DNA of 64,000 bases from Candidatus Latescibacterota bacterium (GCA_965206595.1 OZ242214.1:4928001-4992000), one strand, 5' to 3'; shown: positions 27,996-58,123, counted from the first letter of the stretch. Made by a program: numbers and translations. Notes: generated by a model not told the origin, from the letters alone.

Positions 27996-28093
27996 TGACA
28001 CACGGCCTGGACATTTCCCTGCCGGGAGCACTTCTCCTCGGACTGCATATGGATCGAGCAGATTCCGGGCTCATAAACAGGAAGGAGAATAAC

Positions 28094-28846
28094 GTGATCA
28101 AACGTCAGACCGATCTGAGGTCGGAGCCGGTCGAGCGGATCATCGCACTGGGGGAGAGCACGACCTGGGGCTACTCGGTGTCCGACAAGAGCAAATGCTG
28201 GGTGAGCCAGGTTGTCGCCATGCTCGAGGAGTTCCAGGGTGCGGCGATCGAGCTGATCAACCAGGGCATCGGCAGCAATGTGCTGACACCGGACTGTCCG
28301 TCCTATGAGTTTTCCGCCAAGCCATCGGCGCTCGAGCGGGTGGACGATGAGTTGATTGCCCACGACCCGGATCTGGTCTTCCTGTCATACGGTCTCAACG
28401 ATTCGCGTGGCGGCACTCCTCCGGAGACCTTCCGCCGTGCCTATCAGGAGCTCATCGATCGCATTCGATCCAGGACCGACCCCGTTATCGTGATCATCAA
28501 CACCTACTACATGCACGAGATCCTCTACTCGCACTGCGAGCACTGGGAGGAGAGCAGCTACGACCTCACCGACGTGTACAACCTCGTCATCCGGCAGATC
28601 GCAGAGGCGAACGGCCTCATACTCGCTGATATCTACTCCGCGGAGATTGGCGTGGACTGGATCATCGACGAGGATCATTGCCATCCCAACGACCTTGGAC
28701 ACAGGATAATCGCCAATCGCGTCTTCGAGGCCGTTGTCCGCAACTGCAGTTTCGTGGCGCGCCAGATGCCCGGGACCTCCCTGATCCATTCCTTTGTGGA
28801 GAAGTATGGCAACGGCCCGGACAGACCCTCCAGCGGAGCCAGCTAG
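28094..28846 (+). CDS. SGNH/GDSL hydrolase
   Basis: ALGESTTWG, NQGIG, YGLND and DHCHPN blocks. GTG start after AAGGAG. Confidence 0.88.
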   Translation: MIKRQTDLRSEPVERIIALGESTTWGYSVSDKSKCWVSQVVAMLEEFQGAAIELINQGIGSNVLTPDCPSYEFSAKPSALERVDDELIAHDPDLVFLSYGLNDSRGGTPPETFRRAYQELIDRIRSRTDPVIVIINTYYMHEILYSHCEHWEESSYDLTDVYNLVIRQIAEANGLILADIYSAEIGVDWIIDEDHCHPNDLGHRIIANRVFEAVVRNCSFVARQMPGTSLIHSFVEKYGNGPDRPSSGAS

Positions 28847-30468
28847 TACCGCACGGCCAGCTGAATGGTGTTCAGCAACAGAGGCGACTGCCGCGACTCG
28901 GCGCGCCTGTTCAATACCAACTCCACCGAATTTTCCCCGTGAACGACCTGATCGGGGGTGAGATCGCCCTCCAGCCATTGGCCCTCTTCGGGTGAGGTGA
29001 ACGCGTCGTTGACCTTCAACCCGGACAACGACTTTCCGTTGAGCTCAACGGAGACCTCGTCGTCGGTGGTGAGATCCCACATGTGGGCGCGAAAACGGAG
29101 CTGAGCGTTGCCGGCAGATGTGTCTTCGCCGACCAGGAAACTCAGCCCTAGTTTCTCGCCCTGCACCAGCTCCACCTGCTGGCCGTTTCCGGTTTCCTCC
29201 GGAAATCGATCCACGCCAAACAGTTTGTCTTTGCCCGCCATGGTGGCGGTATCGCCGATCTCTCGCCACCAATGCGGCTCGCCCAAGGCGGGGTTGAAGA
29301 TGTAGAGCCCATCGGCGCCATCGTTGAACATATTCATCGCCGCTCCACGCCAGGCAGCGAGCGTGTGCTCCCACCCGTTGTACTCCAGGATGTAGGAGGG
29401 TTTGCCGAGGCGATCGGGCTGTCCGCCATACAGGTTTTCGAGGTACGAATCGGCGGTTCGATATTTGCCCTTGGCCAGGTCGAGATATGCCCATCGGGTC
29501 CAGAATCCCCACCCCAGGCAAGGGTAAACGGGGACATCGTGGCGATGCCCGAATTCGATCATGTCCCGGTGCGAATCGCAGAACACTGACTCGTTCAGAT
29601 GGCCAGGGATCAGCTGGTCGATCAACCCTTCGGCGAGCCAGGTTTCCAGATCGAGACCAATGAACCGGGAATATTCGAGCCCCGGGGGTGTGTGCGCCGC
29701 CAGTAGAATGGGTCGACCGCGTTTTTGCCCTTCTTCATCCGCCATCCTGCGGATGCGCCGCAAGAAATCGGTCATGATCTCGACGTGTTCGGGCGTGACG
29801 GCTTCGCCCTCCCACGACTCGCGGAAAAACGGGTCGTACTTGAAAAACTCCATGCCGATGACATCCACGTCGTAGTTCTGGGCGACCTCTTCGATGATAC
29901 CGAAGATGTGGTCGCGCACGATCGGCAGGGAAAAGTCGAGCCTGGTCCAGGGCGCCTTGCGGCCGCCGTCGAACTTCTCCCAGTCCCCATCTTCTCCCAA
30001 CATGCATTCGGGATGTTCCACCTTGAACGGCGCCAAACCGTAGGTCCAGCGGCGCGAGCCCATCGGATAGGCGTCGTGGGCGTCGTTCATGCGCAGGGCC
30101 CACACCGCTTCCATGCCGTTTTCCCGACTGAAGTCCAGCTGTATCTGCAGAGGATCCTTTCCATACTTCTCCACCAGCTCCAGCGGCAGCTCCTTGCCGT
30201 AGAAACCGCCCAGTTTGGTGTTGTGTGAAAAGGTCAAGCCGGCCATGCAGCTGGCGTACCAGTTACTGTCGACCTGGGATCCGATCAACGGCGTGCTGCG
30301 GGCGGCCAGAAAATCATCGATGAGCTCGCCAGAGGTGCGCACGGTCAGGCCTTCGGCGACGTCGTGTTCGTGCTCGATACCGTCGCGAGCGTAAAGGGCA
30401 TCGTCGCCGTCGTTATTGAAGATGATTCGTCTCTTGCGCCAACGCGCGTCGCGTCTTGCCTGATCCAT
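28843..30468 (-). CDS. GHL10/DUF187-like TIM-barrel protein (putative glycoside hydrolase) with C-terminal beta-sandwich
   Basis: IIFNNDGDD, LRMND, LDFS...VR, YDVDVIGMEF, GLDLETW..EGLID and GADGLYIFN motifs. No signal peptide. Confidence 0.7.
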   Translation of the reverse strand: MDQARRDARWRKRRIIFNNDGDDALYARDGIEHEHDVAEGLTVRTSGELIDDFLAARSTPLIGSQVDSNWYASCMAGLTFSHNTKLGGFYGKELPLELVEKYGKDPLQIQLDFSRENGMEAVWALRMNDAHDAYPMGSRRWTYGLAPFKVEHPECMLGEDGDWEKFDGGRKAPWTRLDFSLPIVRDHIFGIIEEVAQNYDVDVIGMEFFKYDPFFRESWEGEAVTPEHVEIMTDFLRRIRRMADEEGQKRGRPILLAAHTPPGLEYSRFIGLDLETWLAEGLIDQLIPGHLNESVFCDSHRDMIEFGHRHDVPVYPCLGWGFWTRWAYLDLAKGKYRTADSYLENLYGGQPDRLGKPSYILEYNGWEHTLAAWRGAAMNMFNDGADGLYIFNPALGEPHWWREIGDTATMAGKDKLFGVDRFPEETGNGQQVELVQGEKLGLSFLVGEDTSAGNAQLRFRAHMWDLTTDDEVSVELNGKSLSGLKVNDAFTSPEEGQWLEGDLTPDQVVHGENSVELVLNRRAESRQSPLLLNTIQLAVRY

Positions 30469-30485
30469 CGTGGTTTCCTCCGTAT

Positions 30486-31295
30486 TCAGTGTGCCGATCG
30501 CTCCGTCGGAAAGTGCTCCGCTGCGTGTTCCGCCATACTCTCCGTCCACTGGCTGTAGAACTCACGAGTCACCGGGTCGGGATGTCGCGCCAGACTTTCC
30601 GGCACCAACATCCAGTAGGTGAGAGGCTGGTTGGTCACATGGCTGTAGTACGTATGCTGGGTACGGCGGCCGTGGGTGCACGCGTCAACGCCGGTAATGC
30701 GGGCGTGGAAGATATCGATGTTGTAGAGGATGCAGGTTCCCGCCTTGCCGCGAATGGGGACCTCCTGGTAGTTGGTCATCTGAGCTTGAGCGTCCTCCAG
30801 CTTTGGATAGGTGTGGCTGTTGGGTATCACGGAGAAGCAGGGGCAACAGTCGTGAACGTCCCACAGATAGTAAATGGCGCAAAGATAGCCGCTGTGGTAG
30901 GGATTCTCTGTACGGCGGTTCAGCGGAACAAGGGCCCGGTCTCGATGGAAATGCATGGCGCAGTCGCCGGCCGCTTCCGGGGGAGCAATGCGAAAATCAA
31001 ACTGGGCGAATCGAACGCCCTTCCCCAAGATCGCCTCGACAATCGGATAAGAACGAGGCGGCCGCACATGGCGATCCAGTTCTGGGTGCTCCACCAGGAT
31101 CTGGCCATGGCCGTACATCTCTCGCTCTTTGACTCCCCATCCCTCGGGATCCTCGAGTTTGCAACGGTCGACAAATGCGTTGAGGGTGCTCACCTCCTCT
31201 TCACTGAGTGCGTCTTCAATAACGACGTAGTTGTTCTCCTTGAAGAACTGCAGGATGTCGTCGTGCTGGTGGTGAGGAAAAGCGGAGGCTTCCAT
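30486..31295 (-). CDS. Phytanoyl-CoA dioxygenase (PhyH) family Fe/2OG enzyme
   Basis: FFKENNYVVI, HRD, VIPNSH, KAG and FHA motifs; HxD...H triad intact. Confidence 0.85.
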   Translation of the reverse strand: MEASAFPHHQHDDILQFFKENNYVVIEDALSEEEVSTLNAFVDRCKLEDPEGWGVKEREMYGHGQILVEHPELDRHVRPPRSYPIVEAILGKGVRFAQFDFRIAPPEAAGDCAMHFHRDRALVPLNRRTENPYHSGYLCAIYYLWDVHDCCPCFSVIPNSHTYPKLEDAQAQMTNYQEVPIRGKAGTCILYNIDIFHARITGVDACTHGRRTQHTYYSHVTNQPLTYWMLVPESLARHPDPVTREFYSQWTESMAEHAAEHFPTERSAH

Positions 31296-31458
31296 GGAGT
31301 GCTCCCCTTTCGAAAATAGGGTTCTGGGTTCGGGGCTCAGGGAACGGCCCGACCGCGTCGTTTCCTGGGAGTGCGGGCATCCTTGCTCACAGCCGTTTCA
31401 TCCGGAAGAGCTCGCGGTATTCCGGAGTTGACAGCTGCCCGCGTCGAGTACGTGCTCT

Positions 31459-32973
31459 TCATTGCCCTTGCCTGTATGGCCTGCGGGATTCAAAAACCTT
31501 CAGGCGGTACTCAATTCTCGCCTTTTCCTGCTCGCTTATTGCTGCCGCCCTGTCGAGAGCGTCACGCGCGGTGGTCACCGCCTTTTCGTACTGTCCCGTC
31601 TCAGCGTAGGCGGCTGCTAGTACGTCCAGGACTTCCGGATCCTGAAAACCGGATGTTTCACAAGCGGATTTGGCAAGCTCGATCGCCTCCTTGCCGTTGC
31701 GGAACTCGGCTTTCGGAGAGGTGGCCAGGAGCCAGGCCAGCCTCGTGGCAATCGGCGAAAATTTTTGCCTCTGCTCGAGGCCGCGCCGGAAAGTTGCGAT
31801 CGCTTCGGCATCACGGGCTGTCCTCATGTAAAAGGTGCCAAGGTTGAGGTAAGCACCCGGTGCCTCAGGATGGAGTCGCAGGGCTTTTTCACCCCAAAGG
31901 AAAGCTTCGTCTACCCGGCCGGACTCGAAGAGCGCTTGTCCCAGGTTGGTTATCCCCGCGTAGTTATCGGACTCAAGCTGAATCGCCCTGCGGTACTGCC
32001 CGATCGCCTCGTCGAACCTCCCCAGGGACTGCAGAAGATTGCCAACGTAATTGTGACCGTCAGGATCTGGCTTTAACTCCAGTGCCGTGCGGAACTGTAG
32101 GATGGCTTCTTCTAGGCGGCCCGTGGCTTGGTAAACCAACCCTCTCTCGCGGTACCAATAAGCGCTGATTCCCTTTCCTGTTAACTCGTCATGGACCGGA
32201 TCGGTCAGCCGGACGACTTCAGGTAGGTTCTGAGCAATACCCAGATGTCGAGCCGCCGCCCCAGGCTGCCCTAGGCGCCGCAGTACTTCGGCCAGAACGC
32301 GGTGGGCGTCCGCATACCGGGACTCGATTTCCAAAGCTGTCAGCAAGTATTCACGGCTGGCCTCCAGTTCGGACCTGGAAAGCATGATCTTGGCCAGACC
32401 GAGGTGCGCGTGAGAAGATCTCTCGTCGAGTTCGGCAGCTTTCTCAAACGTGAGAAGTGCTTTGTCGAGATCCCCAGCGTCGTAAAGAGCGCGCGCGTAG
32501 TTCACGTACGCAGGACTGTAATCAGGCTTGAGCGCAATGGCTCGCACGAACTCACCGAAGGCTTCTTTTGAGCCGGCCTCGTTGAGAATAATGGCAAGGT
32601 AGTAAGGCCAGCGAAACTCCTTGGCGTCCAGCGTCGCAGCTTGGCGGTAACACGGAATGGCTCCCTGTTTAAAATCGTGGACGTCCAGGGTCATACCGAG
32701 CTCTCCCCAGGCTTGTGAAGAGCGCGGATTGGCCTCGACATTGACGAGAAGTTCATGAATCCTGGCGGCTACTTGTTGCTCCACGGCGGCCAGGTCGAGT
32801 TCCGGCAAAACGTCGCTCGGTGCCGGCGGGGAGCAATTCAGAAAGGCCGATAGAGGGGCGACCAACCAAAAGGCAGCCAACCGAACAGCCGTGTCCCGAG
32901 GGGTCCGGATTCTACGTGAGCGCTTGAGCGTCTCCGTTTCCCCGATGGTCGGTTTGCTCGTGGAAATAGTCAA
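31459..32973 (-). CDS. Tetratricopeptide repeat protein, probable lipoprotein
   Basis: About 9 TPRs. C-terminal LAWLLAT..RNG.EA..LA...LDVLAAAYAE.G motif. Lipobox-like AFLNC. Start uncertain (TTG 32973 chosen). Confidence 0.82.
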   Translation of the reverse strand: MTISTSKPTIGETETLKRSRRIRTPRDTAVRLAAFWLVAPLSAFLNCSPPAPSDVLPELDLAAVEQQVAARIHELLVNVEANPRSSQAWGELGMTLDVHDFKQGAIPCYRQAATLDAKEFRWPYYLAIILNEAGSKEAFGEFVRAIALKPDYSPAYVNYARALYDAGDLDKALLTFEKAAELDERSSHAHLGLAKIMLSRSELEASREYLLTALEIESRYADAHRVLAEVLRRLGQPGAAARHLGIAQNLPEVVRLTDPVHDELTGKGISAYWYRERGLVYQATGRLEEAILQFRTALELKPDPDGHNYVGNLLQSLGRFDEAIGQYRRAIQLESDNYAGITNLGQALFESGRVDEAFLWGEKALRLHPEAPGAYLNLGTFYMRTARDAEAIATFRRGLEQRQKFSPIATRLAWLLATSPKAEFRNGKEAIELAKSACETSGFQDPEVLDVLAAAYAETGQYEKAVTTARDALDRAAAISEQEKARIEYRLKVFESRRPYRQGQ

Positions 32974-32977
32974 ATGC

Positions 32978-34723
32978 CTATTTATCTCCCAGTGGGGATT
33001 GACCCTTCCTGAGCGCAACAAACTTGTCCGCCTGGACGCCTGGAAAAGTCTCCGTCGCGCCACCCGGCCACTCAACCTGAATTTCGTCTACCTGGTTGGC
33101 CGCACCCAATCCGAAATGCGCTCTTGTGTCATTGCTTGAGAGAAAACTGTAGCCGGGGGCAATCAGGCGACTGATTCGGCGGGCGCCGAGAACGACGATA
33201 ACCCGAGCGCCCAGTGCGTCACGGTTCAGTTCGGGATCGACAGCGCGGACGCTGAGCCACCTCCCGGCAGGCCGTGAGTCGTTGCGAAAAAGTCGCGCAC
33301 GACCCCCTCCGTTAGCAACCAGCAGATCGATGTCGCCGTCGTTGTCGATGTCTCCGAACGCCAGGCCGCGACTGTTTTCGACCGAACGACAAAAATCTGC
33401 CGTTTGTTCGCCGACCGATTGGAAGCGGCCGGAACCGTCGTTCACAAACAGAAAATTCGGTTCGGCATAGTGATCCCAGTAACTTGACGTTCCCTTACCG
33501 GTCAAGAGCGGCCCGCGGGTTACCCGGCCGTTTGCAACCGCAAGGTCGAGATCACCGTCGTGGTCAAAGTCAAAGAACCCGGCCCCGAATCCTGTGTAGG
33601 GCAGGCTTGCGGCTCCTAATCCGGAAGGGGAAGAGTCGTCCTGAAAGCCGAAATCGCCGACGTAGCGGTACAGAGTGTTGCTTTCCTTGCGCAGGTGGGC
33701 CACAAAAAGATCGAGGTTCTCGTCGTTGTCGACATCGCCAACCGCAACGCCCATGCCTGCTTCGGCACGTCCCACTTCATTCAGTGCCGCCCCCAGCAAA
33801 ATGCCGTGATCCTGAAACGTGCCGTTCCCTTGGTTCAACCAAAGATTGTTGGCTTCTCCGTCGTTGGCCACGTAGAGATCCGGATGCTGATCATTGTTGA
33901 AATCTCCGCTGACCACGCCCAACCCTTTCGAAGCGACGGCAGTGATCCCAGACTCACCGGAAACATCCGTGAACGTGCCGTCGCCATTATTGTGGAAGAG
34001 CAAGTCAGGAACTCCTGGAAAACTTTCCGGGCCACAGTAGTCCTGGCGGCCGGAGCGGTCTGGGCACACACTGGCAGGATCCCATGCCAGGTAGTTGGTC
34101 ACGAAGATGTCGAGGTGGTTGTCCAGATTGTAATCAAGAAAGAGCACGGAGCAGCCCCAATCGGGATTGCTGATTCCGGCTTGCTCGGAGATCTTCGTGA
34201 ACGTTCCGCCTCCGTTGTTTTGGTACAACTGGTCTCTGCCGTAGTTGGAAAGGTAAATGTCGAGGTCGCCGTCATTGTCCAGGTCGCCGGCCGCGACGCC
34301 CATGCCGTAGCCAGCGTCGCCGAGTCCCGCCTCGCCGGTCACGTCCTCAAAAGCTTTCTCGTCTTCCTGACGGTAAAGACGATTCCTGGGAGAAACCGTG
34401 CTACCACCTTTTGTGCCGTGATGGGCGCCGTTCACCAGGTAGATGTCCAGGTCGCCGTCGTTGTCATAGTCGAGCAGGGCGCCACCGGGTCCGACGATCT
34501 CCGGCATAAAGTAGCTGCCGTGGACTCCGGGCTCATGTTGAAAATCTAACCCCACCTCATTGGTGACGTCCGTGAACCTCACCTGTTTTCGAGAATCGAT
34601 TTGGCTCTCGTTTTGTTCTTCGAGGGCGTCACATTCCAGTGTTACGAGAAGGTTTGCAATTGGAAGAAAGAACCCCATGAGACTCGAGAAAATGGAATGA
34701 GTTGAAGAGGGTGAAGTGTTCAC
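32978..34723 (-). CDS. CRTAC1 family protein (FG-GAP repeats + ASPIC/UnbV domain)
   Basis: Repeated DYDNDGDLD/DLDNDGDLD motifs. C-terminal ALGARV...HFGLG...V.WP.G ASPIC/UnbV motif. Confidence 0.9.
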   Translation of the reverse strand: MNTSPSSTHSIFSSLMGFFLPIANLLVTLECDALEEQNESQIDSRKQVRFTDVTNEVGLDFQHEPGVHGSYFMPEIVGPGGALLDYDNDGDLDIYLVNGAHHGTKGGSTVSPRNRLYRQEDEKAFEDVTGEAGLGDAGYGMGVAAGDLDNDGDLDIYLSNYGRDQLYQNNGGGTFTKISEQAGISNPDWGCSVLFLDYNLDNHLDIFVTNYLAWDPASVCPDRSGRQDYCGPESFPGVPDLLFHNNGDGTFTDVSGESGITAVASKGLGVVSGDFNNDQHPDLYVANDGEANNLWLNQGNGTFQDHGILLGAALNEVGRAEAGMGVAVGDVDNDENLDLFVAHLRKESNTLYRYVGDFGFQDDSSPSGLGAASLPYTGFGAGFFDFDHDGDLDLAVANGRVTRGPLLTGKGTSSYWDHYAEPNFLFVNDGSGRFQSVGEQTADFCRSVENSRGLAFGDIDNDGDIDLLVANGGGRARLFRNDSRPAGRWLSVRAVDPELNRDALGARVIVVLGARRISRLIAPGYSFLSSNDTRAHFGLGAANQVDEIQVEWPGGATETFPGVQADKFVALRKGQSPLGDK

Positions 34724-34781
34724 ACTTCCTCACCTCGGAGAAGAGCCTGATCGCCTCATCCGTGTTCCTGAGGCGCGACTC

Positions 34782-35870
34782 CTAGTGTTGTGTCGCAGAG
34801 ATTCGTTCGCAAAGTCTCTTGATTTTCGCGAGGATGGAATCGGCCGTAGCCGTCCACACGAAAGGGTGTGCGTTGGCGTTCCATTTGGCCGTGTAGCGTT
34901 CGATGCGCTCGATGAGCTCGGATACCTTACGGAACGAGTCCCGGCGAACCGCCTGGCGGGTAAGGATATTGAACCAGATCTCCACCTGATTGAGCCACGA
35001 AGCATAGGTGGGGGTGTAGTGAACGTGAAATCGGGGACGCCGTGCCAGCCATCGCTTGACCTTGGCCTGCTTATGCGTGGCGTAGTTGTCGACGACGAGA
35101 TGAATATCGAGGTCAGCGGGGACGTGGGCCTCGATGTGGCGCAGGAACTGAAGGAACTCCTGGTGACGATGACGGGGCTTGCACTGGGTCATCACTTCCC
35201 CGGTGGCTACGTCCAAGGCGGCAAACAGGGTGGTGGTGCCATGGCGCTTGTAATCGTGCGTAATCCCTTCCACGTATCCCAGTCCCAGGGGCAGCATGGG
35301 CTGACTTCGTTCCAACGCCTGGATCCGGCTCTTCTCGTCGACGCACAGCACCAGGGCGTGCTCGGGGGGATTCAGGTACAAGCCGACGATATCCCGTACT
35401 TTGTCGACAAAGAAAGGATCGGTGGAAAGCGTGAAGTGCTTGTGTCGATGGGGCTGCAAACCATACGTGCGCCAAATGCGATGAACCGCGTCCTTGGTCA
35501 AGCCGGTTTCTTCGCCCATGGAGCGCACCGACCACTGTGTTTCGTCTTTGGGCTTGGTCTTCAGGGTCTTGTATACCACCTCGGCTACCTGTTCATCCGT
35601 ACTCGATCGTGGCGCCCCTGAGCGCAGCTCATCATGCAAGCCCTGGAGCCCGTTTTCGAGAAAGCGCCGGCGCCACTTGCCGACCGTAGCACGCGTCACA
35701 CCCACGGCGGCGGCGACGGCTTCATTGGGCCAGCCTTCTGCGGCCAGCAGAATAATCTCGGCTCGCCGCACCAACCCGTGGGAAAGGCTCCGGGATTTGG
35801 CCATCGATTCCAATCGTTCCCGGTCCGACGGACTCAGCTCTAACGGCGGTAATGGACGCCCCGTCACCAT
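34782..35870 (-). CDS. IS630-family transposase
   Basis: N-terminal [23 protein letters not shown] and [10 protein letters not shown] motifs. Confidence 0.95.
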
Positions 35871-35954
35871 AGGTCTCTCCTTTCAGAAAGGGGATAAGAG
35901 AAACCTACGGCACCTTCAATTGTTTGTACAGTTAATTATACGACAGGACACTAG
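34782..35954 (-). mobile_element. IS630-family insertion sequence, apparently complete
   Basis: Ends are CTAGTGTTGTGTCG (34782) and CGACAGGACACTAG (35954), an imperfect IR with a TA/CTAG target. Confidence 0.9.
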
Positions 35955-36420: not shown

Positions 36421-39400
36421 CTAATACAGCACGTTCTGCGCATACCCCATGAACAGGCGCACGAAGATCTCCGTCGTGTCGAAGCTCTCGAGGAAGCGGA
36501 ATTCGTCTGCGTACTCCAGCCTGTCCTGCTTGACCCCCAGATTGGTGGAAATCCTGTACCCCGAGTAATCCGACATGTTGGAGAGGAAGACCATCGTCGT
36601 CCGCCGCTTGAAGCTGTTGCGCGGCTCGGCTATGTGGGTTTCCTCGAACCACCAGCCCGGGAGCCCCTGGAGACCCGCCTTCACCTCCGTCGCCGGAGAC
36701 AGCTCATAACGGGCCATGACGAGGGGGACGACCGTGTGGGTGTGGTCCAACGCCCGCTTTCCCAGCTGCCGGGTCCGCTTCAACCAGAGTCCTTTCAGGG
36801 CCGGCTGCAGCGTCAGATTCCCCCAGCGCCACGTGTAGTCGGCCTGCTGCACCCACGCCACGGAACGGATCCGGTTACGGGCTTGCTCCGAACCGTCCCC
36901 GAGCCGATCCCCATACTGCCGGTTGTGTTCCAGTTTCATCCGGGTGACGATCCGCCAGCCGGGAAGCCACCTCAGGGTGCCCGATAGGTACAGCCGGTTT
37001 ACCAGACTGTTGCGATAGTTCAACTGATCCAAGCTGAACGTCGGAAAATACGCGAATCGCCCCTCATCGGACCTGAGGAATCTCTGGTCTACTGTCGCGG
37101 CCGCCCCCGTCCAGCTGAACACGTCATCCGGAACATCGTCCCACACCCGCTTCAACTCATCCTCGACCAGCCATTCACCCACCCCGGGATGCTCCCCGCT
37201 ATACCTTAGCCGAATGTAGCGCTGGTCGTTGCGGCCGGCGCCGGCGATCTGATGGGACTTCAGCCAGCCCAGGGTTGCCACCATGCCCGTCCCTGGCTTC
37301 CAGCGGACATAAGCATGGCCCCCCCGCAGATCCCGGTCATAGGGAAGATCCTCCTTCTGGTCATCCTCTCGCTCATCCACGACATCGTTGTTGTTGAAAT
37401 CCAGACCGTACACGTATTCATCCGGATCCACCTCGTAGAGCAGGAAAGGTTCCAGATAGTCCGGCAGCCCGTTCAGGTTGCGGTTGGTATCCGGGATGCC
37501 ATCGTTGTCCGCATCCTGTCCGGGGAACACTGATAGATCACCGGGGGCCGCGCCCGGTATCATGCTCTCCGGATTGCTATCCTGATCATCATTGTCGTCG
37601 AGAAGAGAAAAGAAGCTCGTGTTGTTCTCCAGAGACCGCTCGCCTTGCACCTGGAGCACAAGGTCTCCTGGCCTCGCACTCAATCTCTGGTTGAACTTGG
37701 GCCCGATGGAAAACAGCTCTCCCCCGAAACCATAGCGCTCCGTCTCCCGCTCCAGCTGAACATACCCGGCTCGATCCCCACGGCGGTGGCGTGCGCCACT
37801 TGCCTCCCGAAGCACAGGCTTGCCTGCAGCCCAAACCACCTGTTCCCCAGGCGTCCCATCCCGGTAGCGGCTGTACGTGAAGCTCTTCGCAAACTCCCCG
37901 CGCACCCGTAGACCCACAAGGTCCAGCGCCATATTCACACCCCATACTGACTGCCCAGTCTCCGTCCCGAGCGGAATCCGTATCCGCTCGACATTGGACA
38001 AATCCTGCACATTCCCCTCGGCACGAAGCACCGTCTTATAGAACGGCGCGCTGTAGCGAGCATCATACGGGGTGCCTTCCCTCGGATTCGACACACTCAG
38101 GTCAGCGACTTCGATACGGTAATCATTGCCCACCGACGCCTCCACCTCCACCGATCGCACATGGGTCAGCCCCTCCAGATCGAAGTAATACACCAGGGCC
38201 TCGGTCCCATCCGCACGCTGAACCTGGCCCGGATCCTCCCACCCCACAAACTCAACCAGACGATCTACGTCCGTGTTGTTGGCCACATTCGGATCGTTCG
38301 GGTCCAGTGCATAATCCCGCCGATACAGGAAGTCGGCAAACAACGGGGTCTCCATCCCCCAATAGGGGCCCGGGGTGCGTGCTATGTCGGGTTCGTAGTA
38401 GAAGCTGGGTCTAAAACTCCCATCGATCGGGCTGGCCTTTCCAACTACCGTAAACCGATCCGTGAGATCCCTACGCACCACGTCCGGGACCAGATCCGGA
38501 CGGACTTCACCGTTGACCACCAGTTGCACTCCATACACCACGGGCCCCCGCCCATCGTCCGGCGAATCGTCCGAAATCCGTAACGCCAAGAGCGCCGGGA
38601 TCGGCTGAGTGGCATGCAGATCCCCCCTCAAGTCGGTCGTCGGATAGCGCACGTCGAACATGTGCTGGTTCGCAAACGTGGCGCCCGCCCGCAACGGCCC
38701 CATCTCGCGCTCATAGTGTCCTGCCAGGAGAATCCCCGAATCGCTGTCGGTACCCCTTGCCGCACCCCCTCCCTGATACATCGAATAAGTGTAGGCAGCT
38801 ACGAGGCTCAAGGCATCACCAAACGGGCTCAGCACATCCGCCCGGGCCCCCTGCAGCGACACGCGATTCACCGTCAGCGGCGTGAACCGAGTGATGATCC
38901 CTCTCGTCCACCAATGCTGTTGACTTATGCGCCCTGTGAAGATCAGATTAGCTGCCCATTCCGAGTGGCTCTGTCCTCCCATGGAAAAAATCCCGTTGAA
39001 GTCGTTGAGGGCAGATCTGAAAATACTGCTCCCACTCCGGATATCCCCCGCCGTGCCCCGCGCCGCCGACCAAGAGCTCAATTCCCGGCCGCTGATCAGA
39101 AAGTTACCCAGGGGATCGTAGATATTCGACCACGGCGGACGATCCGTCAGCGCGTCGTAGTTATGATACTCCGTGAACGCGTAGTTTCGATACGGCTCCC
39201 CCAGGTCCGCAAAAAACGTCTGATCCGGCACGATCGCAGGCACCATCGGGGTATCCTTCCATCGACGCTCCGCCTCCCATACCTCCCCCCCCTGCACATC
39301 CCCTTGCGACTGAGCGTCAAGCCATCTTCCCTCCCCCACCACAACCGTCATTAAAAAAAAATGAAGTGAAAATGACAGACGTCCCCCTCTGAAGCCAAAG

Positions 39401-39510
39401 CGGCTCCATCCCCCGCCTGGTCTTTTGCCTTTACGTGCGATGCAGGGCATCGCTTCTGTCATTTCGTTGGGTTCGCAGTTCGTCCATAAAGGACTCACCA
39501 TCCCGGGCAA
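36421..39510 (-). CDS. Large hypothetical protein, probable outer-membrane beta-barrel with inserted Ca-binding (DxDxDG) segment
   Basis: Many alternating amphipathic strands. Acidic DDNDDQD, DADNDGIPD and DFNNNDVVD motifs. C-terminal EIFVRLFMGY...LY. The true start may be downstream of 39510. Confidence 0.65.
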   Translation of the reverse strand: MPGMVSPLWTNCEPNEMTEAMPCIARKGKRPGGGWSRFGFRGGRLSFSLHFFLMTVVVGEGRWLDAQSQGDVQGGEVWEAERRWKDTPMVPAIVPDQTFFADLGEPYRNYAFTEYHNYDALTDRPPWSNIYDPLGNFLISGRELSSWSAARGTAGDIRSGSSIFRSALNDFNGIFSMGGQSHSEWAANLIFTGRISQQHWWTRGIITRFTPLTVNRVSLQGARADVLSPFGDALSLVAAYTYSMYQGGGAARGTDSDSGILLAGHYEREMGPLRAGATFANQHMFDVRYPTTDLRGDLHATQPIPALLALRISDDSPDDGRGPVVYGVQLVVNGEVRPDLVPDVVRRDLTDRFTVVGKASPIDGSFRPSFYYEPDIARTPGPYWGMETPLFADFLYRRDYALDPNDPNVANNTDVDRLVEFVGWEDPGQVQRADGTEALVYYFDLEGLTHVRSVEVEASVGNDYRIEVADLSVSNPREGTPYDARYSAPFYKTVLRAEGNVQDLSNVERIRIPLGTETGQSVWGVNMALDLVGLRVRGEFAKSFTYSRYRDGTPGEQVVWAAGKPVLREASGARHRRGDRAGYVQLERETERYGFGGELFSIGPKFNQRLSARPGDLVLQVQGERSLENNTSFFSLLDDNDDQDSNPESMIPGAAPGDLSVFPGQDADNDGIPDTNRNLNGLPDYLEPFLLYEVDPDEYVYGLDFNNNDVVDEREDDQKEDLPYDRDLRGGHAYVRWKPGTGMVATLGWLKSHQIAGAGRNDQRYIRLRYSGEHPGVGEWLVEDELKRVWDDVPDDVFSWTGAAATVDQRFLRSDEGRFAYFPTFSLDQLNYRNSLVNRLYLSGTLRWLPGWRIVTRMKLEHNRQYGDRLGDGSEQARNRIRSVAWVQQADYTWRWGNLTLQPALKGLWLKRTRQLGKRALDHTHTVVPLVMARYELSPATEVKAGLQGLPGWWFEETHIAEPRNSFKRRTTMVFLSNMSDYSGYRISTNLGVKQDRLEYADEFRFLESFDTTEIFVRLFMGYAQNVLY

Positions 39511-39515
39511 CAGTA

Positions 39516-39828
39516 CTAGCCTGCCTGGGTGCGCATAAGCATTCCAAGGTCAAGCGATGGCTGGCACGGCGTCCCCGATTTCGCCTTCACTACACCCCCA
39601 CGTATGCTTCGTGGCTCAACCAAGTCGAGATTTGGTTCAGCATCATTACCCGCCAGGCGGTTCGCCGGGACTCGTTCCGTAAGGTATCGGAGCTCATCGA
39701 GCGAATCGAACGCTACACGGCCAAATGGAACGCCAACGCACACCCTTTCGTCTGGACGGCTACGGCCGATTCCATCCTCGCGAAAATCAAGAGACTTTGT
39801 GAACGAATCTCTGCCGACACAACACTAA
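39516..39828 (+). mobile_element. Partial IS630 copy (3' end of transposase plus right IR), inverted relative to 34782-35954
   Basis: Encodes [12 protein letters not shown]...[10 protein letters not shown]...[10 protein letters not shown], near-identical to the intact copy. Ends in GACACAACACTA. Confidence 0.9.
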
Positions 39829-41771
39829 TAGGCCATACTCAATCCATTACCCATCATCCCGGTGAAATAGTCCACGATCAGCCAGAATCCCCCGGCCACG
39901 AACTGACCCAGGATCAACCCGTAGAAAAGAGGAGCGAGCGAACGATAGGCTTTGAGGCCACCATACTTCAAGAGAATCGACTTGGTCAGCCAAGCAAGAA
40001 AGATCGGAAACCAGGCCGTACCCATCACCCTATCCATACTGATCACAAATCCCAGAGGATGTAACGGCCACCACAGGAAACGGCGATGCAAAACCAGAAG
40101 ACTCGCCATCACCCCGCCGCCCAGCAGCCGGACAAGCCAACCCAACCAATTCGGTCCCGCATTCTCGTCGACCCTGCGTGCCACATACGCCCAGGTAAAG
40201 TCGGGCAGATAGCTCACGTAACCAGCTACGTTGATACCCCCCTCCCGATAGATTACCCACAACGACGTCCAGAACGTACTGACCGCAGAAATCCCAATAG
40301 CGATCGCAATCGCCAGCAACAACCATCGCTTCCGATACGCGATCTCCCCGCTCAACTTCAACCCCGTAGCCGTATGTGCCATCATCGTGCACGCCAGTGA
40401 TTCCGTCCATATCACCGTCGGCCCCAGCGCCGCGATCCCGGTAGGCCCTATGTAGCGCGCGCCAATCCCAGAGATCACGAAGTCGAGGGGGATATTGCGA
40501 GGAAACACCATAGGCAAGCCCGCCTCGGAGATGATGCGCGTCAGGCTGATGAAGGTCACCAGCACCCCGAACAGGAACAGCGGCCCTACCCACAGCGGCA
40601 ATCCGGCACGCCAGAGCCACACATTCATCCCGACCAGGCCGAGGATTACTCCCCACACAGCAGTGCGGTATGACATGATCTCGTCGTCATCGTTTACCGA
40701 CGTGTCCCCTCTGAACGCCTTCCGAAACACCTCCCGCAGATGCCCCCGGCCAATCCAAAGCCCGAAGAGCACCAGCGCGGTCATGGCACCTATGCTCTGA
40801 TGTGCCAGCAGCCCGCCGCCATAGCTAGACACAGGTTCCCCAATGCCAGCCCCCGTCAGGTGCAACGCACCCTCCTCCAGTTGCCGCAGCAGAGTGAATA
40901 CCCACATCCCGAGCATCACGTCCGGTTTGAGGAAGTACGCAAACCCCAGGATCATCAGATTCAGGTAGAAGGAGATGCCCACTGTTCCCCGCAACAGGGT
41001 GATGTCCCCAAAGTTCGACGGGATGACGGGAACCAAGGGGAAGTAATGGTTCAGGGCATTGAGGCTCTCTCGGCCGAACGCCAGCAGCAATCCCACCCAC
41101 ATCAGAGGCTTCTTGAAAAAGGGCGCCACCAGCGATCCGCCTGACGGGGCTTCCACCATGGCCAGAGGTACCTTGGTGATCGGATAGATCAGGTGTTCGT
41201 GCTCCACCCACTGGCGACGGAGAATCACCATCACGCAGATGCTCACCATCCACAACGCCACCATGAACAGCAACCACCAGAACAGCGGCGGCAACCACAT
41301 ACCCCAGGGGACAGACTCGCCTTCCGGCATCCCTTCGAAAAACCACTGGATCCCCATCTTATCGTGAGGGACCATCCAATCCGCGACGTAGGGATGAACC
41401 CGCTCCGCCCACTCGTTTTGCGGCGAAGCCAGGTAGAATACCCCGGCCGCGGACCCCAACAGCATCAAGCAGAACCCGTTGCGCTCGCCACCAGAGAAAG
41501 CCGTCGCCACGACCATCATGAGGTAGATGGTCAGCAACTCCCCCTTGCCCAGCACCAGCCGACCGTGAATGAGCCCCAACAGCACCTGGACAACACCCAC
41601 CCACAGGAAGAACAGAAAGAAGGCGGCCGGAGCGTTCAATGCGCTCATGTGGCTGCCCATGATGACAAACGCTCCGTAGGGTACTCCCACCCCGATCACC
41701 AGACTGAGTCCGGCTCCGATGACCAAGGAGCGCAGCGTCACCCCCGACGCCGGCCGCTTCTCTATTTCCAT
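39825..41771 (-). CDS. DUF6785/DUF6784 family multi-pass membrane protein (OPT-like transporter candidate)
   Basis: GVTLRSL..G, EL..IY, YLASPQNEW, ILRRQW...E.L.YP and WWPLHPLG motifs; about 16 TM segments. Confidence 0.8.
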   Translation of the reverse strand: MEIEKRPASGVTLRSLVIGAGLSLVIGVGVPYGAFVIMGSHMSALNAPAAFFLFFLWVGVVQVLLGLIHGRLVLGKGELLTIYLMMVVATAFSGGERNGFCLMLLGSAAGVFYLASPQNEWAERVHPYVADWMVPHDKMGIQWFFEGMPEGESVPWGMWLPPLFWWLLFMVALWMVSICVMVILRRQWVEHEHLIYPITKVPLAMVEAPSGGSLVAPFFKKPLMWVGLLLAFGRESLNALNHYFPLVPVIPSNFGDITLLRGTVGISFYLNLMILGFAYFLKPDVMLGMWVFTLLRQLEEGALHLTGAGIGEPVSSYGGGLLAHQSIGAMTALVLFGLWIGRGHLREVFRKAFRGDTSVNDDDEIMSYRTAVWGVILGLVGMNVWLWRAGLPLWVGPLFLFGVLVTFISLTRIISEAGLPMVFPRNIPLDFVISGIGARYIGPTGIAALGPTVIWTESLACTMMAHTATGLKLSGEIAYRKRWLLLAIAIAIGISAVSTFWTSLWVIYREGGINVAGYVSYLPDFTWAYVARRVDENAGPNWLGWLVRLLGGGVMASLLVLHRRFLWWPLHPLGFVISMDRVMGTAWFPIFLAWLTKSILLKYGGLKAYRSLAPLFYGLILGQFVAGGFWLIVDYFTGMMGNGLSMAY

Positions 41772-41836
41772 CGACAAACCCAGTAGTCCCACTCTTGGGT
41801 GTCGCTCGGAAATTCTCGACAACCCACTCTATTCGT

Positions 41837-42320
41837 TGAAGTTACCCGGTTTGGTGAACATCCGGATACTTGGGTGAAAGGAGGATGTCCACATGCCGAA
41901 GTCCCGTTCCCCGTACCCGCCTTGAGTTTCCGCTGTCAGTATGGTGCAACCGATGGGGGAACGAACGCCTGAGGAGCCGGGCAAGGGTTTGAGCCCCCCG
42001 CCCAGGCGGTTCGCAACTGGGTGGCCCGGGCGGAACGCGACGAAGGTCTTCGCGAAGGCGGCCTCACGACCGCGGAGCAGGAAGAGCTGCGGCGCCTGCG
42101 GCGGGAGAAACAAGCAGTTGCGCATTGAGCGTGGGATCCTGTCAAAGGCAGCCACCTGGTTCGCTCAGGAAGCCGATTCCAAGCCGAGGTCTTCGAGTTT
42201 GTGAGCGATCACCAAGCCCTCTATCCGATCGCCACCATTGGAGGGCGTAAGTCGCCGAAAGCGGGCGCATACGACGCGACGCGATCGTCACGGACGGGTG
42301 GCTCCGAACTTGGTGGATGT
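41837..42320 (+). mobile_element. Degenerate IS3-family remnant (OrfA and start of OrfB)
   Basis: Starts with TG, then GGAGG-ATG MPKSRSPYPP. ERGILSKAATWFAQE is an OrfA end; TTRRD..APNLV is OrfB. Multiple frameshifts. Confidence 0.75.
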
Positions 42321-42682
42321 GCGGCCGATCCCTCTCGTTGCAGTATTGCCCCTCGAGAGATCCCGCTGTCCCACGCACGACCGGCGGATCGAGCAGACCC
42401 CCCTGGGCGTGCCGTCGGCGCGGGGGAGCTACCGCTTCGATTACCTCCTGCTCAGGTACTGCCAGCGGATGCCGCAGGTTATCGCCGCCCCCATGCTTGG
42501 CATCGCGGCGTCGGCATCCTGCACCGTATCACCGAGCGGGAACGACAGGGGCACCGGATCCGAGGTCTCAAGACGATCGGCATCGATGAGATTCCTACGC
42601 CAAGGACCACCAACCGCGCCCGGTGGAAACCCTTGGCACAAGACGTCTCTATGGCAAGCCGTTGAGAATTCCGGAGATAGCC
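42321..42682 (+). mobile_element. Degenerate ISL3-family remnant
   Basis: CPTH..RIEQTP...YRF...RMP and GLKTIGIDEI segments resemble ISL3 transposase. Ends ...GATAGCC, i.e. a GGCTAT-type IR. Confidence 0.6.
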
Positions 42683-42684
42683 TG

Positions 42685-42724
42685 AAAACAGGAGGCGGAG
42701 GAAGGGCAGAACCCCCTCCTCCGC
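42685..42724 (-). terminator. Rho-independent terminator after the FlgD-tailed protein gene
   Basis: GCGGAGGA/TCCTCCGC stem followed on the minus strand by TGTTTT. Confidence 0.45.
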
Positions 42725-42753
42725 TCGGTGACCCGTCGGCAACCCTCCCCCCT

Positions 42754-44703
42754 TTACTTGAGCAGGGTCATCTTCTTTGTCATCTGATAGTGGCCAACCT
42801 GCAGGCTATAGAAATACAACCCGCCGGCAGCTAGGTCTCCGCTGGCGTTGGTGCCGTCCCACCCAGTGCGATAGGTGCCCCCGGTCAGGTACTCGTTGAC
42901 CAGTGTGGCCACCTTCTGGCCCTGGATGTTGAGGACAGTCATCTTCACAAGGGCCTCCACGGGAACGGCGAACTCGATCGTCGTCTCCGCGTTGAACGGG
43001 TTCGGATACGCCTCGCCCAACACATAGTCATCGGGCGTCACGTCTGAAGAGATTTCCGCGACCGCCGTCGGGAGATCCCTTCCGATCAGAGCCATAGAAA
43101 TCCGGAACGGCAGATGGCCAATCTGATAACCAAAACCATCACCGTGGAATTCCGGTTCAGTAGCCAGAAGATACAGTCCGTCGTGCTCCGAATGCTCGTG
43201 GAGCATATAAACGCCCGTCCCGGTCGCCTGGTTATGCGACGTCGGAGCCTTGGCTGCGTCAACGTGAAGGAGCCCCGCGCCATCGGGGCCGTAGAGCGCC
43301 CCCCAGTGGGGCTGGACCGGGTTTTTCGTACCCTCAGCTACGAAAGCGAACCCCTCGGCACTGCCGGTGAGCACGTGAGCGTCACCATCCAGAGTTGGCT
43401 CAATACCCAGGGCATCTGCTTGGGTTTCATAGATCATGTCGTTGAAGCCGTCCCCGGCATCGTTCATATAGATGAGGTTCCCGTCCCAGTCGACCTTTAA
43501 AGGACTTCTTGTTATCGAATCCGCGCCCCAACCTCCAGCGCAGACGATGAACCCCGAGTCATCGATGTGCATAGTCCCAACCATGCTGGCAACAGGCGAC
43601 GTTGATCCATCCTCGTTGAAGCGCTCGAATACATAGAACGGGCTGATGTCGATGATGTTCGTGACCTCGCCCGTATTAGAATCCAGTTCGTAGATATCGG
43701 AGACCGGGGGATCGGTAAAGAACCCATGGCCCATGTACAGTTTGTTTTCAAAAAATTGGAGCGAATTGAAGATATTCTGGTTATCGTCGACAACAATCCT
43801 CTCTTTCCAACTGGCGGGTGGGTCCCCGAAGCCTTCCATGGGTTCGGCCGTCGTCTGGTCCAGAGAAACGGTGGCGCCAATTATGCCACCATCCCAGAAT
43901 TGGTACGACCACCAGCGGGTGAAGTCGTCCGGATCAACGACAGACCCATGGCTCGTGCCCCCCAGTATCGCTCTTGGGTTCCCGTCAGCGTCCGTCAGGC
44001 CGTAGTTCGGGACTTCGGTGAGCTTGACAAGCTCCATCTCATCGTGTTCCAGGAAATTGCCCGCGGCAATCGAATATCTCATGAAGCTCGCGCCCCCCGC
44101 GCCCAGGTCGGCAACGATTTGCTCTCTCGACCCGCCCGGCCTCGTGCCCAATGTCGCGCCGGTGCCAATGATCCATCCTTCCCCTTGGGCGTTCATGAGG
44201 TAGACAGCGCGCTGCCGCATCCCCCAACCCGAGACGCCTACCCAGTTGACATCATCCAGGTTGTTGATGCCGATAGCGTAGAGGGTGTACGTGCCCGGCT
44301 CGACGGCGTTCTCTTCCCAATCTTTCCCATCCCACGTGCCGCTGTGCGTTCCCTCCTCGAACGTCCCCAGCTCCACCACTCTTACCAGGTTGGGGATCCC
44401 CGCCTTGCGGTTCAGAGCGTGGCCGCCATTTATCTCGGGGATACCAGGGCCGCCCCAGCCGCCCTCGGTGGGCTGATCCTTGGTGTACACCACCAGCCAG
44501 ACGGAGGCACGGCTGCCCCGCAGAGTGAAAGGAATGGTCGCATTGCCGCTGAAATCGTAGCTCACATTCCCCAGATCAATATCCAGCAGTTGCAGCTCCT
44601 CGCTACGCACGTATCGGTAGCCCTCAGTCCCCGCTTGGCCGTAAGCCAGTCCCGCGCAAACCGCGAGGAGGATCATGGACAAAAACATAGCTCTCGGTCG
44701 CAT
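42754..44703 (-). CDS. Secreted protein with N-terminal FlgD-like Ig domain and C-terminal T9SS-type A/FlgD-like sorting domain
   Basis: Signal peptide (..GLAYG-Q). N-terminal WDGKD..G..V.PGTY. C-terminal PTAV..AYPNPFNAETTIEF...GQKVATLV...WDG...GLYFY...KKMTLLK. Confidence 0.85.
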   Translation of the reverse strand: MRPRAMFLSMILLAVCAGLAYGQAGTEGYRYVRSEELQLLDIDLGNVSYDFSGNATIPFTLRGSRASVWLVVYTKDQPTEGGWGGPGIPEINGGHALNRKAGIPNLVRVVELGTFEEGTHSGTWDGKDWEENAVEPGTYTLYAIGINNLDDVNWVGVSGWGMRQRAVYLMNAQGEGWIIGTGATLGTRPGGSREQIVADLGAGGASFMRYSIAAGNFLEHDEMELVKLTEVPNYGLTDADGNPRAILGGTSHGSVVDPDDFTRWWSYQFWDGGIIGATVSLDQTTAEPMEGFGDPPASWKERIVVDDNQNIFNSLQFFENKLYMGHGFFTDPPVSDIYELDSNTGEVTNIIDISPFYVFERFNEDGSTSPVASMVGTMHIDDSGFIVCAGGWGADSITRSPLKVDWDGNLIYMNDAGDGFNDMIYETQADALGIEPTLDGDAHVLTGSAEGFAFVAEGTKNPVQPHWGALYGPDGAGLLHVDAAKAPTSHNQATGTGVYMLHEHSEHDGLYLLATEPEFHGDGFGYQIGHLPFRISMALIGRDLPTAVAEISSDVTPDDYVLGEAYPNPFNAETTIEFAVPVEALVKMTVLNIQGQKVATLVNEYLTGGTYRTGWDGTNASGDLAAGGLYFYSLQVGHYQMTKKMTLLK

Positions 44704-45860: not shown

Positions 45861-45904
45861 AAACCCCATTTTGAGGATGTTCAGCGATTCAGCACATTAG
45901 AGAA

Positions 45905-45952
45905 CCACTATATATTGGCTAACGAAGACAACGCATACACTATATGTTGTAT
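45905..45952. promoter_or_regulatory. Tandem NrdR-box-like sites
   Basis: ccaCtAtATaTtGgct (45905) and acaCtAtATgTtGtat (45937) match acaCwAtATaTwGtgt, with 32-bp start-to-start spacing. Confidence 0.6.
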
Positions 45953-58098: not shown

Positions 58099-58123
58099 TC
58101 GGCCCCGTGAGATCGCGAGACCG

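Follow-up and report, generated by a model that had tools for sequence, protein, structure and literature searches.

The closest described counterparts of the locus presented here are the SusC/SusD polysaccharide utilization loci (PULs) of Bacteroidota, in which surface capture, an outer-membrane barrel, an inner-membrane importer and degradative enzymes are co-localised. Latescibacterota, which are uncultured and widespread, degrade polymers of algal and animal origin. A published genome-based model of Latescibacteria features non-specific porins together with ATP-binding cassette (ABC), symport and phosphotransferase system (PTS) importers (PMC4454575). We analyzed a stretch of 64,000 nucleotides from Candidatus Latescibacterota bacterium (GCA_965206595.1 OZ242214.1:4928001-4992000), called the window below, which corresponds to G000:C1:4928001-4992000 of a single-contig genome of 7.05 Mb (G000) that is 92.9% complete. 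Positions 28,094 to 44,703 of the window hold a row of genes which we read, with a probability of about 0.5, as a PUL-like nutrient-acquisition locus without SusC/SusD, built from independently recurring modules. The features listed above are common to this locus and the Bacteroidota PULs, as are the many copies per genome, the affiliation with the Fibrobacterota-Chlorobiota-Bacteroidota (FCB) superphylum and the presence alongside a type IX secretion system (T9SS). The differences lie in a putative importer of the DUF6785 type instead of a major facilitator superfamily (MFS) or ABC one, in T9SS cargo instead of SusD/E/F lipoproteins, and in a barrel without a Plug domain. The PUL concept is already known; the parts and their linkage appear to be new.

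The row consists of seven genes on the minus strand, with a convergent SGNH/GDSL esterase gene at its downstream end. Searches of Pfam, NCBIfam and the PDB recovered in place all families named in a preliminary description of this DNA; signal peptides and N-termini were assessed by eye. The first gene (42754-44703) encodes a secreted protein of 649 amino acids with a classical signal peptide, MRPRAMFLSMILLAVCAGLAYG, an internal Ig-like FlgD_ig domain (Pfam, E 6.8e-15) and a C-terminal T9SS type A sorting domain (TIGR04183, 27.6 bits, cut-off 23); only weak matches to FlgD Ig domains were found for it in the PDB. The genome also encodes SprA (615 bits summed, cut-off 200), PorU (617.6 bits, cut-off 420) and, beside PorU, a PorV-like protein (141 bits, under the cut-off of 250), and the protein therefore qualifies as type A cargo of a T9SS. 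It is followed by a polytopic inner-membrane DUF6785/DUF6784 protein of 665 amino acids (39825-41822; PF20581, E 8e-114, 381.3 bits; PF20580, E 1.3e-28, 99.6 bits) and by the gene of the barrel protein (open reading frame (ORF) 36421-39510; 1013 amino acids from Met17, 36421-39462). Further inwards lie genes for a CRTAC1-like FG-GAP/UnbV-ASPIC protein (32978-34723), for a protein with TPR families of Pfam (31459-33075, the true start probably being after the CRTAC1 stop codon), for a PhyH-type Fe(II)/2-oxoglutarate dioxygenase (30486-31295; PF05721, E 2.3e-14, 54.6 bits, cut-off 22) and for a GHL10/GH156-like (beta/alpha)8 hydrolase (28843-30549; GHL10, 21.3 bits, under the cut-off of 27.9). 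The esterase gene (27566-28846, plus strand) matches Lipase_GDSL_2 in residues 194-381 (E 9.3e-24), while its first ~140 residues, an Arg/Pro/Gly-rich N-terminus, look like a spurious extension. The PhyH and GHL10-like proteins have no signal peptide, in agreement with the cytoplasmic placement proposed for them earlier. The TPR protein had been called a lipoprotein; its site, ...FLNC, is uncanonical.

The locus is also devoid of SusC/SusD and ABC parts, as had been claimed: SusD (PF07980) has no match in the whole genome, taken at its 92.9% completeness, none of the 24 Plug matches of the genome lies in the window at 27-64 kb, and there is no ABC gene in the locus.

The families of the row are strongly expanded in this genome, which has 47 matches to PF20581 (38 intact genes), 39 to UnbV_ASPIC, 33 CRTAC1-like genes, 30 barrels (family F12), 62 FlgD-tailed proteins (families F4 and F115, the latter with four copies including the one in the window), 23 GHL10-like genes (family F17) and 190 PhyH-type dioxygenase genes. 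The last make up ~3.5% of the 5439 genes called by a codon model, which makes local errors, for example at 60.4-62 kb of the window. Families were delimited by all-against-all BLASTP with Louvain clustering and then subjected to neighbourhood tests. Despite the expansion, co-location exceeded the shuffled null: 10-gene intervals containing DUF6785 and two or more others of the five core families were observed 12 times versus 1.66 expected (maximum of 6 in 500 permutations), those with at least four of the five families five times versus 0.096 expected, and all five occurred together once, in the window studied here, versus 0 expected. Within five genes of DUF6785 there were 13 of 33 CRTAC1-like genes (p 1.9e-7), 8 of 30 barrels (p 1e-3), three of the four F115 genes, 5 of 23 GHL10-like genes (p 0.02) and 11 of the 87 members of one PhyH family (p 0.048). 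Three of 37 DUF6785 genes were directly adjacent to a GHL10-like gene (0.33 expected; reached by 8 of 2000 permutations).

Other pairs of genes are linked as well. Nearly all barrels (28/30, p 7e-30) lie near a FlgD-tailed gene of family F4, and 7 of 10 SurA-like rotamases lie near barrels. A TPR gene is adjacent to 11 of 33 CRTAC1-like genes (~0.9 expected, TPR proteins being 1.3% of genes), in addition to three fusions with TPR. GHL10-like genes are adjacent to PhyH in 7 of 23 cases (reached by 2 of 2000 permutations) and within two genes of it in 11 of 23 (0 of 2000). The co-location signal thus arises from modules, namely the barrel with T9SS-tailed proteins, CRTAC1 with TPR, GHL10-like with PhyH, and DUF6785 with CRTAC1; the link of DUF6785 to GHL10-like genes and to the barrel is weaker than that to CRTAC1.

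The CRTAC1-TPR module is the one for which a physical interaction is predicted. The CRTAC1-like protein belongs to the CRTAC1 family by its PF13517 (FG-GAP_3, E 7.9e-54, in seven stretches) and PF07593 (UnbV_ASPIC, E 1.4e-17) matches and by its match to human CRTAC1 (PDB 9etn, E 1.1e-19), and its homologues are named 'CRTAC1 family protein' in their source records. It shares the FG-GAP propeller and the UnbV_ASPIC domain with the human protein and differs from it in being a probable lipoprotein that is paired or fused with TPR and stands beside DUF6785. The N-terminal Cys31 is at least 90% conserved in 45 homologues; judged by its sequence, the protein is probably a seven-bladed propeller lipoprotein. 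Complex prediction for the CRTAC1-TPR pair, which the preliminary description had proposed as a check, gave a median score of 0.65 compared to 0.01 for the best control, where the mark for a complex is reached by 116 of 157 solved complexes and by 2 of 215 mismatched pairs. Contacts agreed by at least 97% between runs, and the partner had a predicted local distance difference test (pLDDT) of at least 88. In the predicted complex the conserved propeller loop 221-227 is placed in the TPR groove. This supports binding of CRTAC1 to TPR, as far as a model can. A further neighbour of CRTAC1-like genes is an 868-amino acid fusion of an MFS domain and spermine/spermidine synthase (family F38, 11 copies; for example G000:C1:1320224-1322830, L023), six of the 11 copies being within five genes of a CRTAC1-like gene (p 6.6e-6).

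The ~1000-amino acid protein was described earlier as barrel-like, and its predicted fold bears this out. It matches no Pfam or NCBIfam family, including Plug, TonB_dep_Rec, SLH and SlpA, and has relatives in 407 representative clusters (E <= 0.001) among 1.84 billion proteins. An AlphaFold2 model from 86 sequences (pLDDT 82.7, predicted TM-score 0.83) consists nearly entirely of long beta strands, ~27 of them with at least eight residues in the DSSP string. Foldseek returned 138 matches at E <= 0.001, with outer-membrane barrels dominating among the matches listed, such as MtrB (E 4e-9) and SlpA entries (4e-9 to 4e-8), at TM-scores of 0.15-0.35. The best match by VIA-align was SlpA of Deinococcus (7zgx_A; Z 13.0, root-mean-square deviation 8.3, 423 residues aligned), generic porins having Z 10-12. 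Taken together, the model indicates that the 1013-amino acid protein is a giant outer-membrane beta-barrel. Its most conserved stretch is an Asp/Asn-rich loop (~620-711) with nearly invariant D/N columns at 623-711, which resembles calcium-binding thrombospondin type 3 (TSP3) repeats. Compared with the C-terminal 30-stranded barrel of Deinococcus radiodurans SlpA (7zgx, 8ae1, 8agd), both are very large outer-membrane barrels, but TM-scores are only 0.15-0.18 and identity is ~10%, and the Asp-rich loop is specific to the protein studied here. TonB-dependent transporters, which are 22-stranded with an N-terminal Plug, align to the barrel wall only (Z ~10). A TonB-dependent receptor was considered as an identity of this protein and rejected, since it has no Plug and none of the Plug matches of the genome falls in the locus.

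The DUF6785 protein is a putative importer with 17-18 hydrophobic segments. All of 120 listed homologues contain PF20581 and 116 of them also PF20580, and none has a functional name. Of 151 genomes of the phylum searched, 137 have PF20581, as a rule with 20-88 first-look candidates per genome (one family had 0/13), and DUF6785 is the most multiplied membrane family of the phylum. No relevant PDB relative was identified by sequence or profile at E <= 10 (one chance match had E 1.2). In the Atlas, the named clusters closest to it are 'peptide transporter' and oligopeptide transporter (OPT), at 0.78-0.79, which can be used only as a lead. Like OPT/Yellow-Stripe transporters (PF03169; barley YS1), the DUF6785 proteins are of similar size and have many membrane segments; unlike them, they are present in tens of copies, whereas OPT genes are mostly single in a genome. 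True OPT genes were found in 18 of 81 phylum genomes searched, as a single gene in 17 of these, and PF03169 was detected neither in the DUF6785 protein nor in this genome. When a DUF6785 alignment was compared by hhalign with 11 OPT proteins of the phylum, an N-terminal T-x-R...G...Y-G was aligned, as was ILRRQW..ERL.YP of DUF6785 with PLRR..L.YPEG of OPT. A family of ~300 amino acids, F1, the second largest of the genome with 83 copies (for example G000:C1:933101-933976, L002), is often found next to FlgD-tailed genes and DUF6785, as in L050, L054, L070 and L081; it has no Pfam or NCBIfam match and, searched at 291 amino acids, none in the PDB.

The GHL10-like protein scores under the Pfam GHL10 cut-off in copy 1 as well as in the second copy described below and matches the glycoside hydrolase family 156 (GH156) exosialidase 6rzd over ~118 residues (E 1.4e-13, chain residues 160-274). 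In the GH156 enzyme EnvSia156, an inverting exosialidase, Asp14 and His134 are described as catalytic and Arg129, Arg202 and Asn346 as the carboxylate triad, with Arg246 fully conserved (PMC6811678). Trp164 of the +1 pocket described there is kept in the GHL10-like protein, but Arg202 is replaced by Lys and Arg246 by His; Asp14, His134, Arg129 and Asn346 are outside the alignment. With two conserved arginines replaced, the protein was rejected as a bona fide sialidase.

Five of the families were reported to recur at 54900-64000 on the same strand, and this second copy was found again. It comprises a weak SGNH match (54900-56081; 23.8 bits, cut-off 32.9), DUF6785/6784 (56158-58176; PF20581, 407.9 bits; PF20580, 84.3 bits), a fusion of TPR and CRTAC1 (58124-60382), a GHL10-like gene (60493 to ~62300), a PhyH gene (62145-62990; 51.3 bits) and a second GHL10-like gene from 63003 onward, past the end of the window, all on the minus strand. 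The GHL10 score in copy 2 is 19.0 bits, or 20.9 for the trimmed ORF (cut-off 27.9). The barrel and the FlgD-tailed protein have no counterpart there. The G+C content at third codon positions (GC3) of copy 2 is native, 0.83-0.89. Between the citrate synthase gene and copy 2 lies an ORF for 564 amino acids on the plus strand (53231-54925), whose coding signal is strong but which matches neither Pfam nor NCBIfam.

Neighbourhoods in other genomes were represented by 79 loci that surround relatives of DUF6785 and come from Latescibacterota, Gemmatimonadota, Planctomycetota, Handelsmanbacteria, Poribacteria and Armatimonadota; they were scanned with hidden Markov models of the families of this genome. 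At most 10 kb from DUF6785 were TPR in 23 of the 79 loci, PhyH0 in 20, GFO in 19, MR_MLE and sulfatase in 18 each, F4 in 17, CRTAC1 in 14, F115 in 13, rotamase in 12 and the barrel in 10; 16 of the 18 sulfatase matches were at most 4 kb away. Some gene orders recur. FlgD-tail, barrel, barrel, rotamase and DUF6785 are co-oriented in L098, L103 and L112, and L110 has the same run without a FlgD-tail match. Co-oriented DUF6785, rotamase, (TPR, CRTAC1), FlgD-tail and barrel were found in L043, L048, L051 and L073, where L073 ends in the FlgD-tail gene and shows no barrel match. CRTAC1 directly follows DUF6785 in L040 and L042.

Taking these observations together, we infer the following order of steps and direction of transport. 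The T9SS-exported surface protein and the giant SlpA-like barrel would provide capture and passage through the outer membrane; the CRTAC1-type propeller lipoprotein with its bound TPR protein would handle the substrate in the periplasm; the DUF6785/DUF6784 permease would import the product over the inner membrane; and the cytoplasmic GHL10/GH156-like hydrolase and PhyH dioxygenase, together with the SGNH esterase, would carry out glycoside splitting and oxidative trimming. Across genomes DUF6785 neighbours include sulfatases, sugar-acid dehydratases, GFO oxidoreductases and BNR proteins, and, given also the SGNH esterase and the GH156-like hydrolase of the window, the substrate would probably be a modified, acidic or amino-sugar-bearing glycan or glycoconjugate.

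The row is interrupted, a feature absent from the preliminary description. A full insertion sequence (IS) of the IS630 family (34781-35955, minus strand; transposase 34782-35870) lies between the barrel and CRTAC1 genes. It has DDE_3 (E 2.9e-24) with an N-terminal helix-turn-helix (HTH_23/29/28), terminal inverted repeats (ends CTAGTGTTGTG...CAGGACACTAG) and 33 other copies of at least 85% identity, some of 99%. Next to the stop codon of DUF6785 is a 296-bp IS630 end fragment (39532-39827; 32 other copies of at least 85% identity), which repeats the low-coordinate end of the full element (window 34783-35077) in inverted orientation. The FlgD-tail gene and DUF6785 are separated by a 930-bp spacer (41823-42753), which contains two repeat elements (41837-42227 and 42320-42609), with multi-copy matches in the genomes G094 (70%) and G087 (74%), and a 108-amino acid ORF, probably spurious, that has no Pfam family and matches itself alone. 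Tight packing with overlaps is confined to the CRTAC1, TPR, PhyH and GHL10-like genes.

The genome contains ~40 copies of this IS630 family (35 full-length matches; 40 members of the transposase family), several of them 99% identical, which suggests recent bursts of transposition. The like IS630 ends at 34781 and 39827 point outward and flank the barrel gene in a 5-kb segment. This is the geometry of a composite transposon, though two insertions with a later deletion would give the same picture. L040 has the nearest DUF6785 from outside this genome (83% identity); there the DUF6785 gene runs into the start of CRTAC1 without an intervening barrel, which is consistent with a barrel that entered the window later. 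The older operon is probably DUF6785-CRTAC1-TPR-PhyH-GHL10-like, and the barrel gene was probably moved between DUF6785 and CRTAC1 by IS630. DNA contigs from two studies, distinct from that of the RNA libraries below, span all 30 bins, the long ones listed being ~99.7-99.9% identical; they break at the IS and the repeats, so that short-read assemblies neither confirm nor refute the junctions.

This part of the window also differs in composition. The G+C content of the 28-46 kb bins is 0.54-0.60, versus 0.66 and 0.65 in the bins on either side and 0.63-0.70 in the majority of bins (0.62 at 10-12 kb), and GC3 is 0.64-0.76 in the locus versus ~0.9 in the flanking genes. The flanks are the housekeeping genes gltBD, pntAB and citrate synthase. 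An IS with a DDE_Tnp_1_6 transposase (Pfam; 45860-47795, plus strand) marks the upstream edge of the lower-GC block; in the repeat scan this segment starts at 45860 and runs to the end of the scanned part, 46100. The block at 28000-46000 may be a horizontally acquired or fast-evolving island. No tRNAs or Rfam families were found in the window.

The closest paralogues of the FlgD-tail, barrel and DUF6785 genes of the window share one minus-strand cluster at 3.73-3.76 Mb of the genome (the best paralogue of the FlgD-tail gene, at 3757803-3759884, scores 707 bits). It is composed, in order, of ExbD, a 185-amino acid gene, F115, F4 (with discoidin and CHU_C), four barrels, a PD40/oligogalacturonate-lyase-like propeller, a 1137-amino acid TPR protein, DUF5683, DUF4159, a beta-helix protein, a TonB/AgmX-like protein and DUF6785. 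The upstream half of the row has the appearance of a parent-type cluster that was reduced and rearranged. In the genomes of two other members of the genus, matches are limited to the barrel (80-81% nucleotide identity), DUF6785 (80-82%) and the FlgD-tail gene (66-68%), and these matches are in the counterpart of the 3.73-3.76 Mb cluster. The row is a mosaic of smaller recurring modules, partly joined by mobile elements, and not one fixed seven-gene machine; the idea of the seven genes as a conserved unit has to be dropped.

Several other genes accompany the parent-type cluster. Family F114 (418 amino acids; G000:C1:3733684-3734940, L135:6685-7941) has an AgmX/PglI C-terminal domain and a near-threshold match to the TonB C-terminal domain, and is directly upstream of DUF6785 in several genomes (unk114 matches in L040, L042, L070 and L109). 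It is accompanied by DUF4159 and the giant TPR protein; in this genome, ExbD is at the far end of the cluster, and F114 with ExbD may be a Ton-like energiser of the barrel cluster. Divergent from the cluster is a 1790-amino acid FtsX and Peptidase_M28 protein (G000:C1:3761071-3766443, L136:5572-10944; family F88), and another F88 member, of 2215 amino acids (G000 1304597-1311244), matched the DUF6785 query. Family F60 (7 copies; for example G000:C1:6683888-6685930, L137) has both a PMT_2 glycosyltransferase-like membrane domain and TPR repeats and is enriched near rotamase and barrel genes (3/7).

Contigs from RNA libraries cover a part of the locus. Metatranscriptome contigs from two libraries of one study lie on the FlgD-tail gene (at 42737-44298), on 203 and 156 bases of the GHL10-like gene without mismatch, and on 226 bases of the TPR gene with two mismatches. 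These contigs demonstrate presence in the RNA libraries and speak neither to operon structure nor to co-expression. Among the contigs listed, none from an RNA library maps to unique sequence of the barrel, DUF6785 or CRTAC1 genes, which is not evidence of silence.

A number of observations weigh against reading the row as a PUL-like locus. Mobile-element scars are found at all three junctions of the upstream half, and neither of the two other genomes of the genus is syntenic at this locus. The link between DUF6785 and the barrel is modest (5/37, p 0.009). PhyH is not enriched beside DUF6785 (2 of 37 adjacent versus 2.5 expected) and was therefore dropped as a member of the DUF6785 module, and only 3 of the 79 foreign loci have a GHL10-like gene at most 10 kb from DUF6785. 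These loci are not independent, several being from close relatives, and the hypergeometric and permutation nulls disregard the general clumping of catabolic islands. The hhalign comparison of DUF6785 with OPT gave a probability of 6% (E 0.006). Contigs from the RNA libraries touch the FlgD-tail, GHL10-like and TPR genes only, and such libraries can hold DNA. Finally, the complete barrel clusters at other sites include ExbD, a TonB-like protein, DUF4159, a giant TPR protein and the PMT_2 glycosyltransferase-like family, so that an envelope-building machine fits too. Of the single PUL-like system proposed earlier, the linkage within modules stands, while the fixed seven-gene unit and the tie between PhyH and DUF6785 do not.

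The main alternative, which we consider rather unlikely, is that the barrel and the T9SS-tailed proteins form an envelope or surface-architecture machine, either an SlpA-like tether or pore or a platform for T9SS cargo, that was placed here by an IS630 accident, and that only DUF6785-CRTAC1-TPR-PhyH-GHL10-like is a catabolic operon. This would account for the barrel being enclosed between like, outward-facing IS630 ends, for the weak enrichment of DUF6785 near barrels and for the absence of a barrel between DUF6785 and CRTAC1 in L040, the nearest foreign locus. The clustering of the closest barrel paralogue with ExbD, TonB-like, DUF4159, DUF5683, giant TPR, beta-helix and propeller proteins, the enrichment of the PMT_2 and TPR family near barrels and rotamases, and the Deinococcus SlpA barrel as the best structural match point the same way. 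On the other hand, a co-oriented, packed run of FlgD-tail, barrel, rotamase and DUF6785 is present in at least 8 of the 79 foreign loci and at several places in this genome, the last gene of the parent cluster is itself a DUF6785 gene, and some F4 members have discoidin (F5/8 type C) sugar-binding domains, all of which argues against this alternative.

Transport in the opposite direction appears very improbable. In this case DUF6785 would make or flip a polysaccharide or another polymer, TPR and CRTAC1 would guide it, and it would exit via the barrel, as with BcsC, PelB, PgaA and AlgE. TPR proteins accompany polysaccharide-export porins, VIA-align matched PgaA (4y25, Z 11.5), PelBC (9h80, Z 10.7) and AlgE (Z 10.3), and NCBIfam gave weak TPR matches to BcsC, PrsT and VexE, all far under their cut-offs. 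The VIA-align scores, however, are no higher than those of generic porins. The catabolic neighbours of DUF6785 argue against export, as do the lack of a synthase or classical glycosyltransferase among the enriched families and the Atlas features of DUF6785, which, as a lead, point to peptide/OPT importers. It is also improbable, if less so, that families expanded in 'sponge symbionts' (PhyH, FG-GAP/ASPIC, TPR, T9SS cargo) merely clump in flexible, IS-rich islands, with functionally uncoupled modules. The abundance of PhyH-type genes and IS630 copies, the lower-GC block, the missing link between PhyH and DUF6785, and the expansions of PhyH and ASPIC/UnbV that a study of Poribacteria already describes (PMC3909097) would be expected under such clumping. 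Specific pairwise links (barrel with F4, CRTAC1 with TPR, GHL10-like with PhyH) would not, nor would the same gene orders in other phyla-level lineages, the TPR-CRTAC1 fusions or the predicted CRTAC1-TPR complex.

The PUL-like reading can be extended beyond this genome. According to a broader and rather doubtful proposal, Latescibacterota and the related Gemmatimonadota, Handelsmanbacteria and Poribacteria would share a SusC/SusD-independent paradigm of uptake, leading from T9SS-anchored capture through barrels of ~26-30 strands (full clusters having a SurA-like chaperone and an ExbD/TonB-like energiser) and CRTAC1-TPR lipoprotein complexes to tens of substrate-specialised, putatively OPT-fold DUF6785 permeases per genome, with GHL10-like and PhyH enzymes as a new two-enzyme cytoplasmic glycoside step. 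A search of one literature library, which covered papers outside their supplementary files, where such names might be listed, returned no paper naming DUF6785, DUF6784, PF20581 or PF20580 and none combining Latescibacterota with type IX secretion.

In summary, DUF6785 is linked to an undescribed family of giant barrels, to T9SS cargo and to CRTAC1-TPR pairs, which points away from the published model of porins and ABC, symport and PTS importers. If the modules are the uptake route of the phylum, they provide concrete, testable gene sets for carbon turnover by Latescibacterota. If true, this would also open a first way to the function of bacterial CRTAC1 homologues and of the PhyH expansions known from sponge symbionts.

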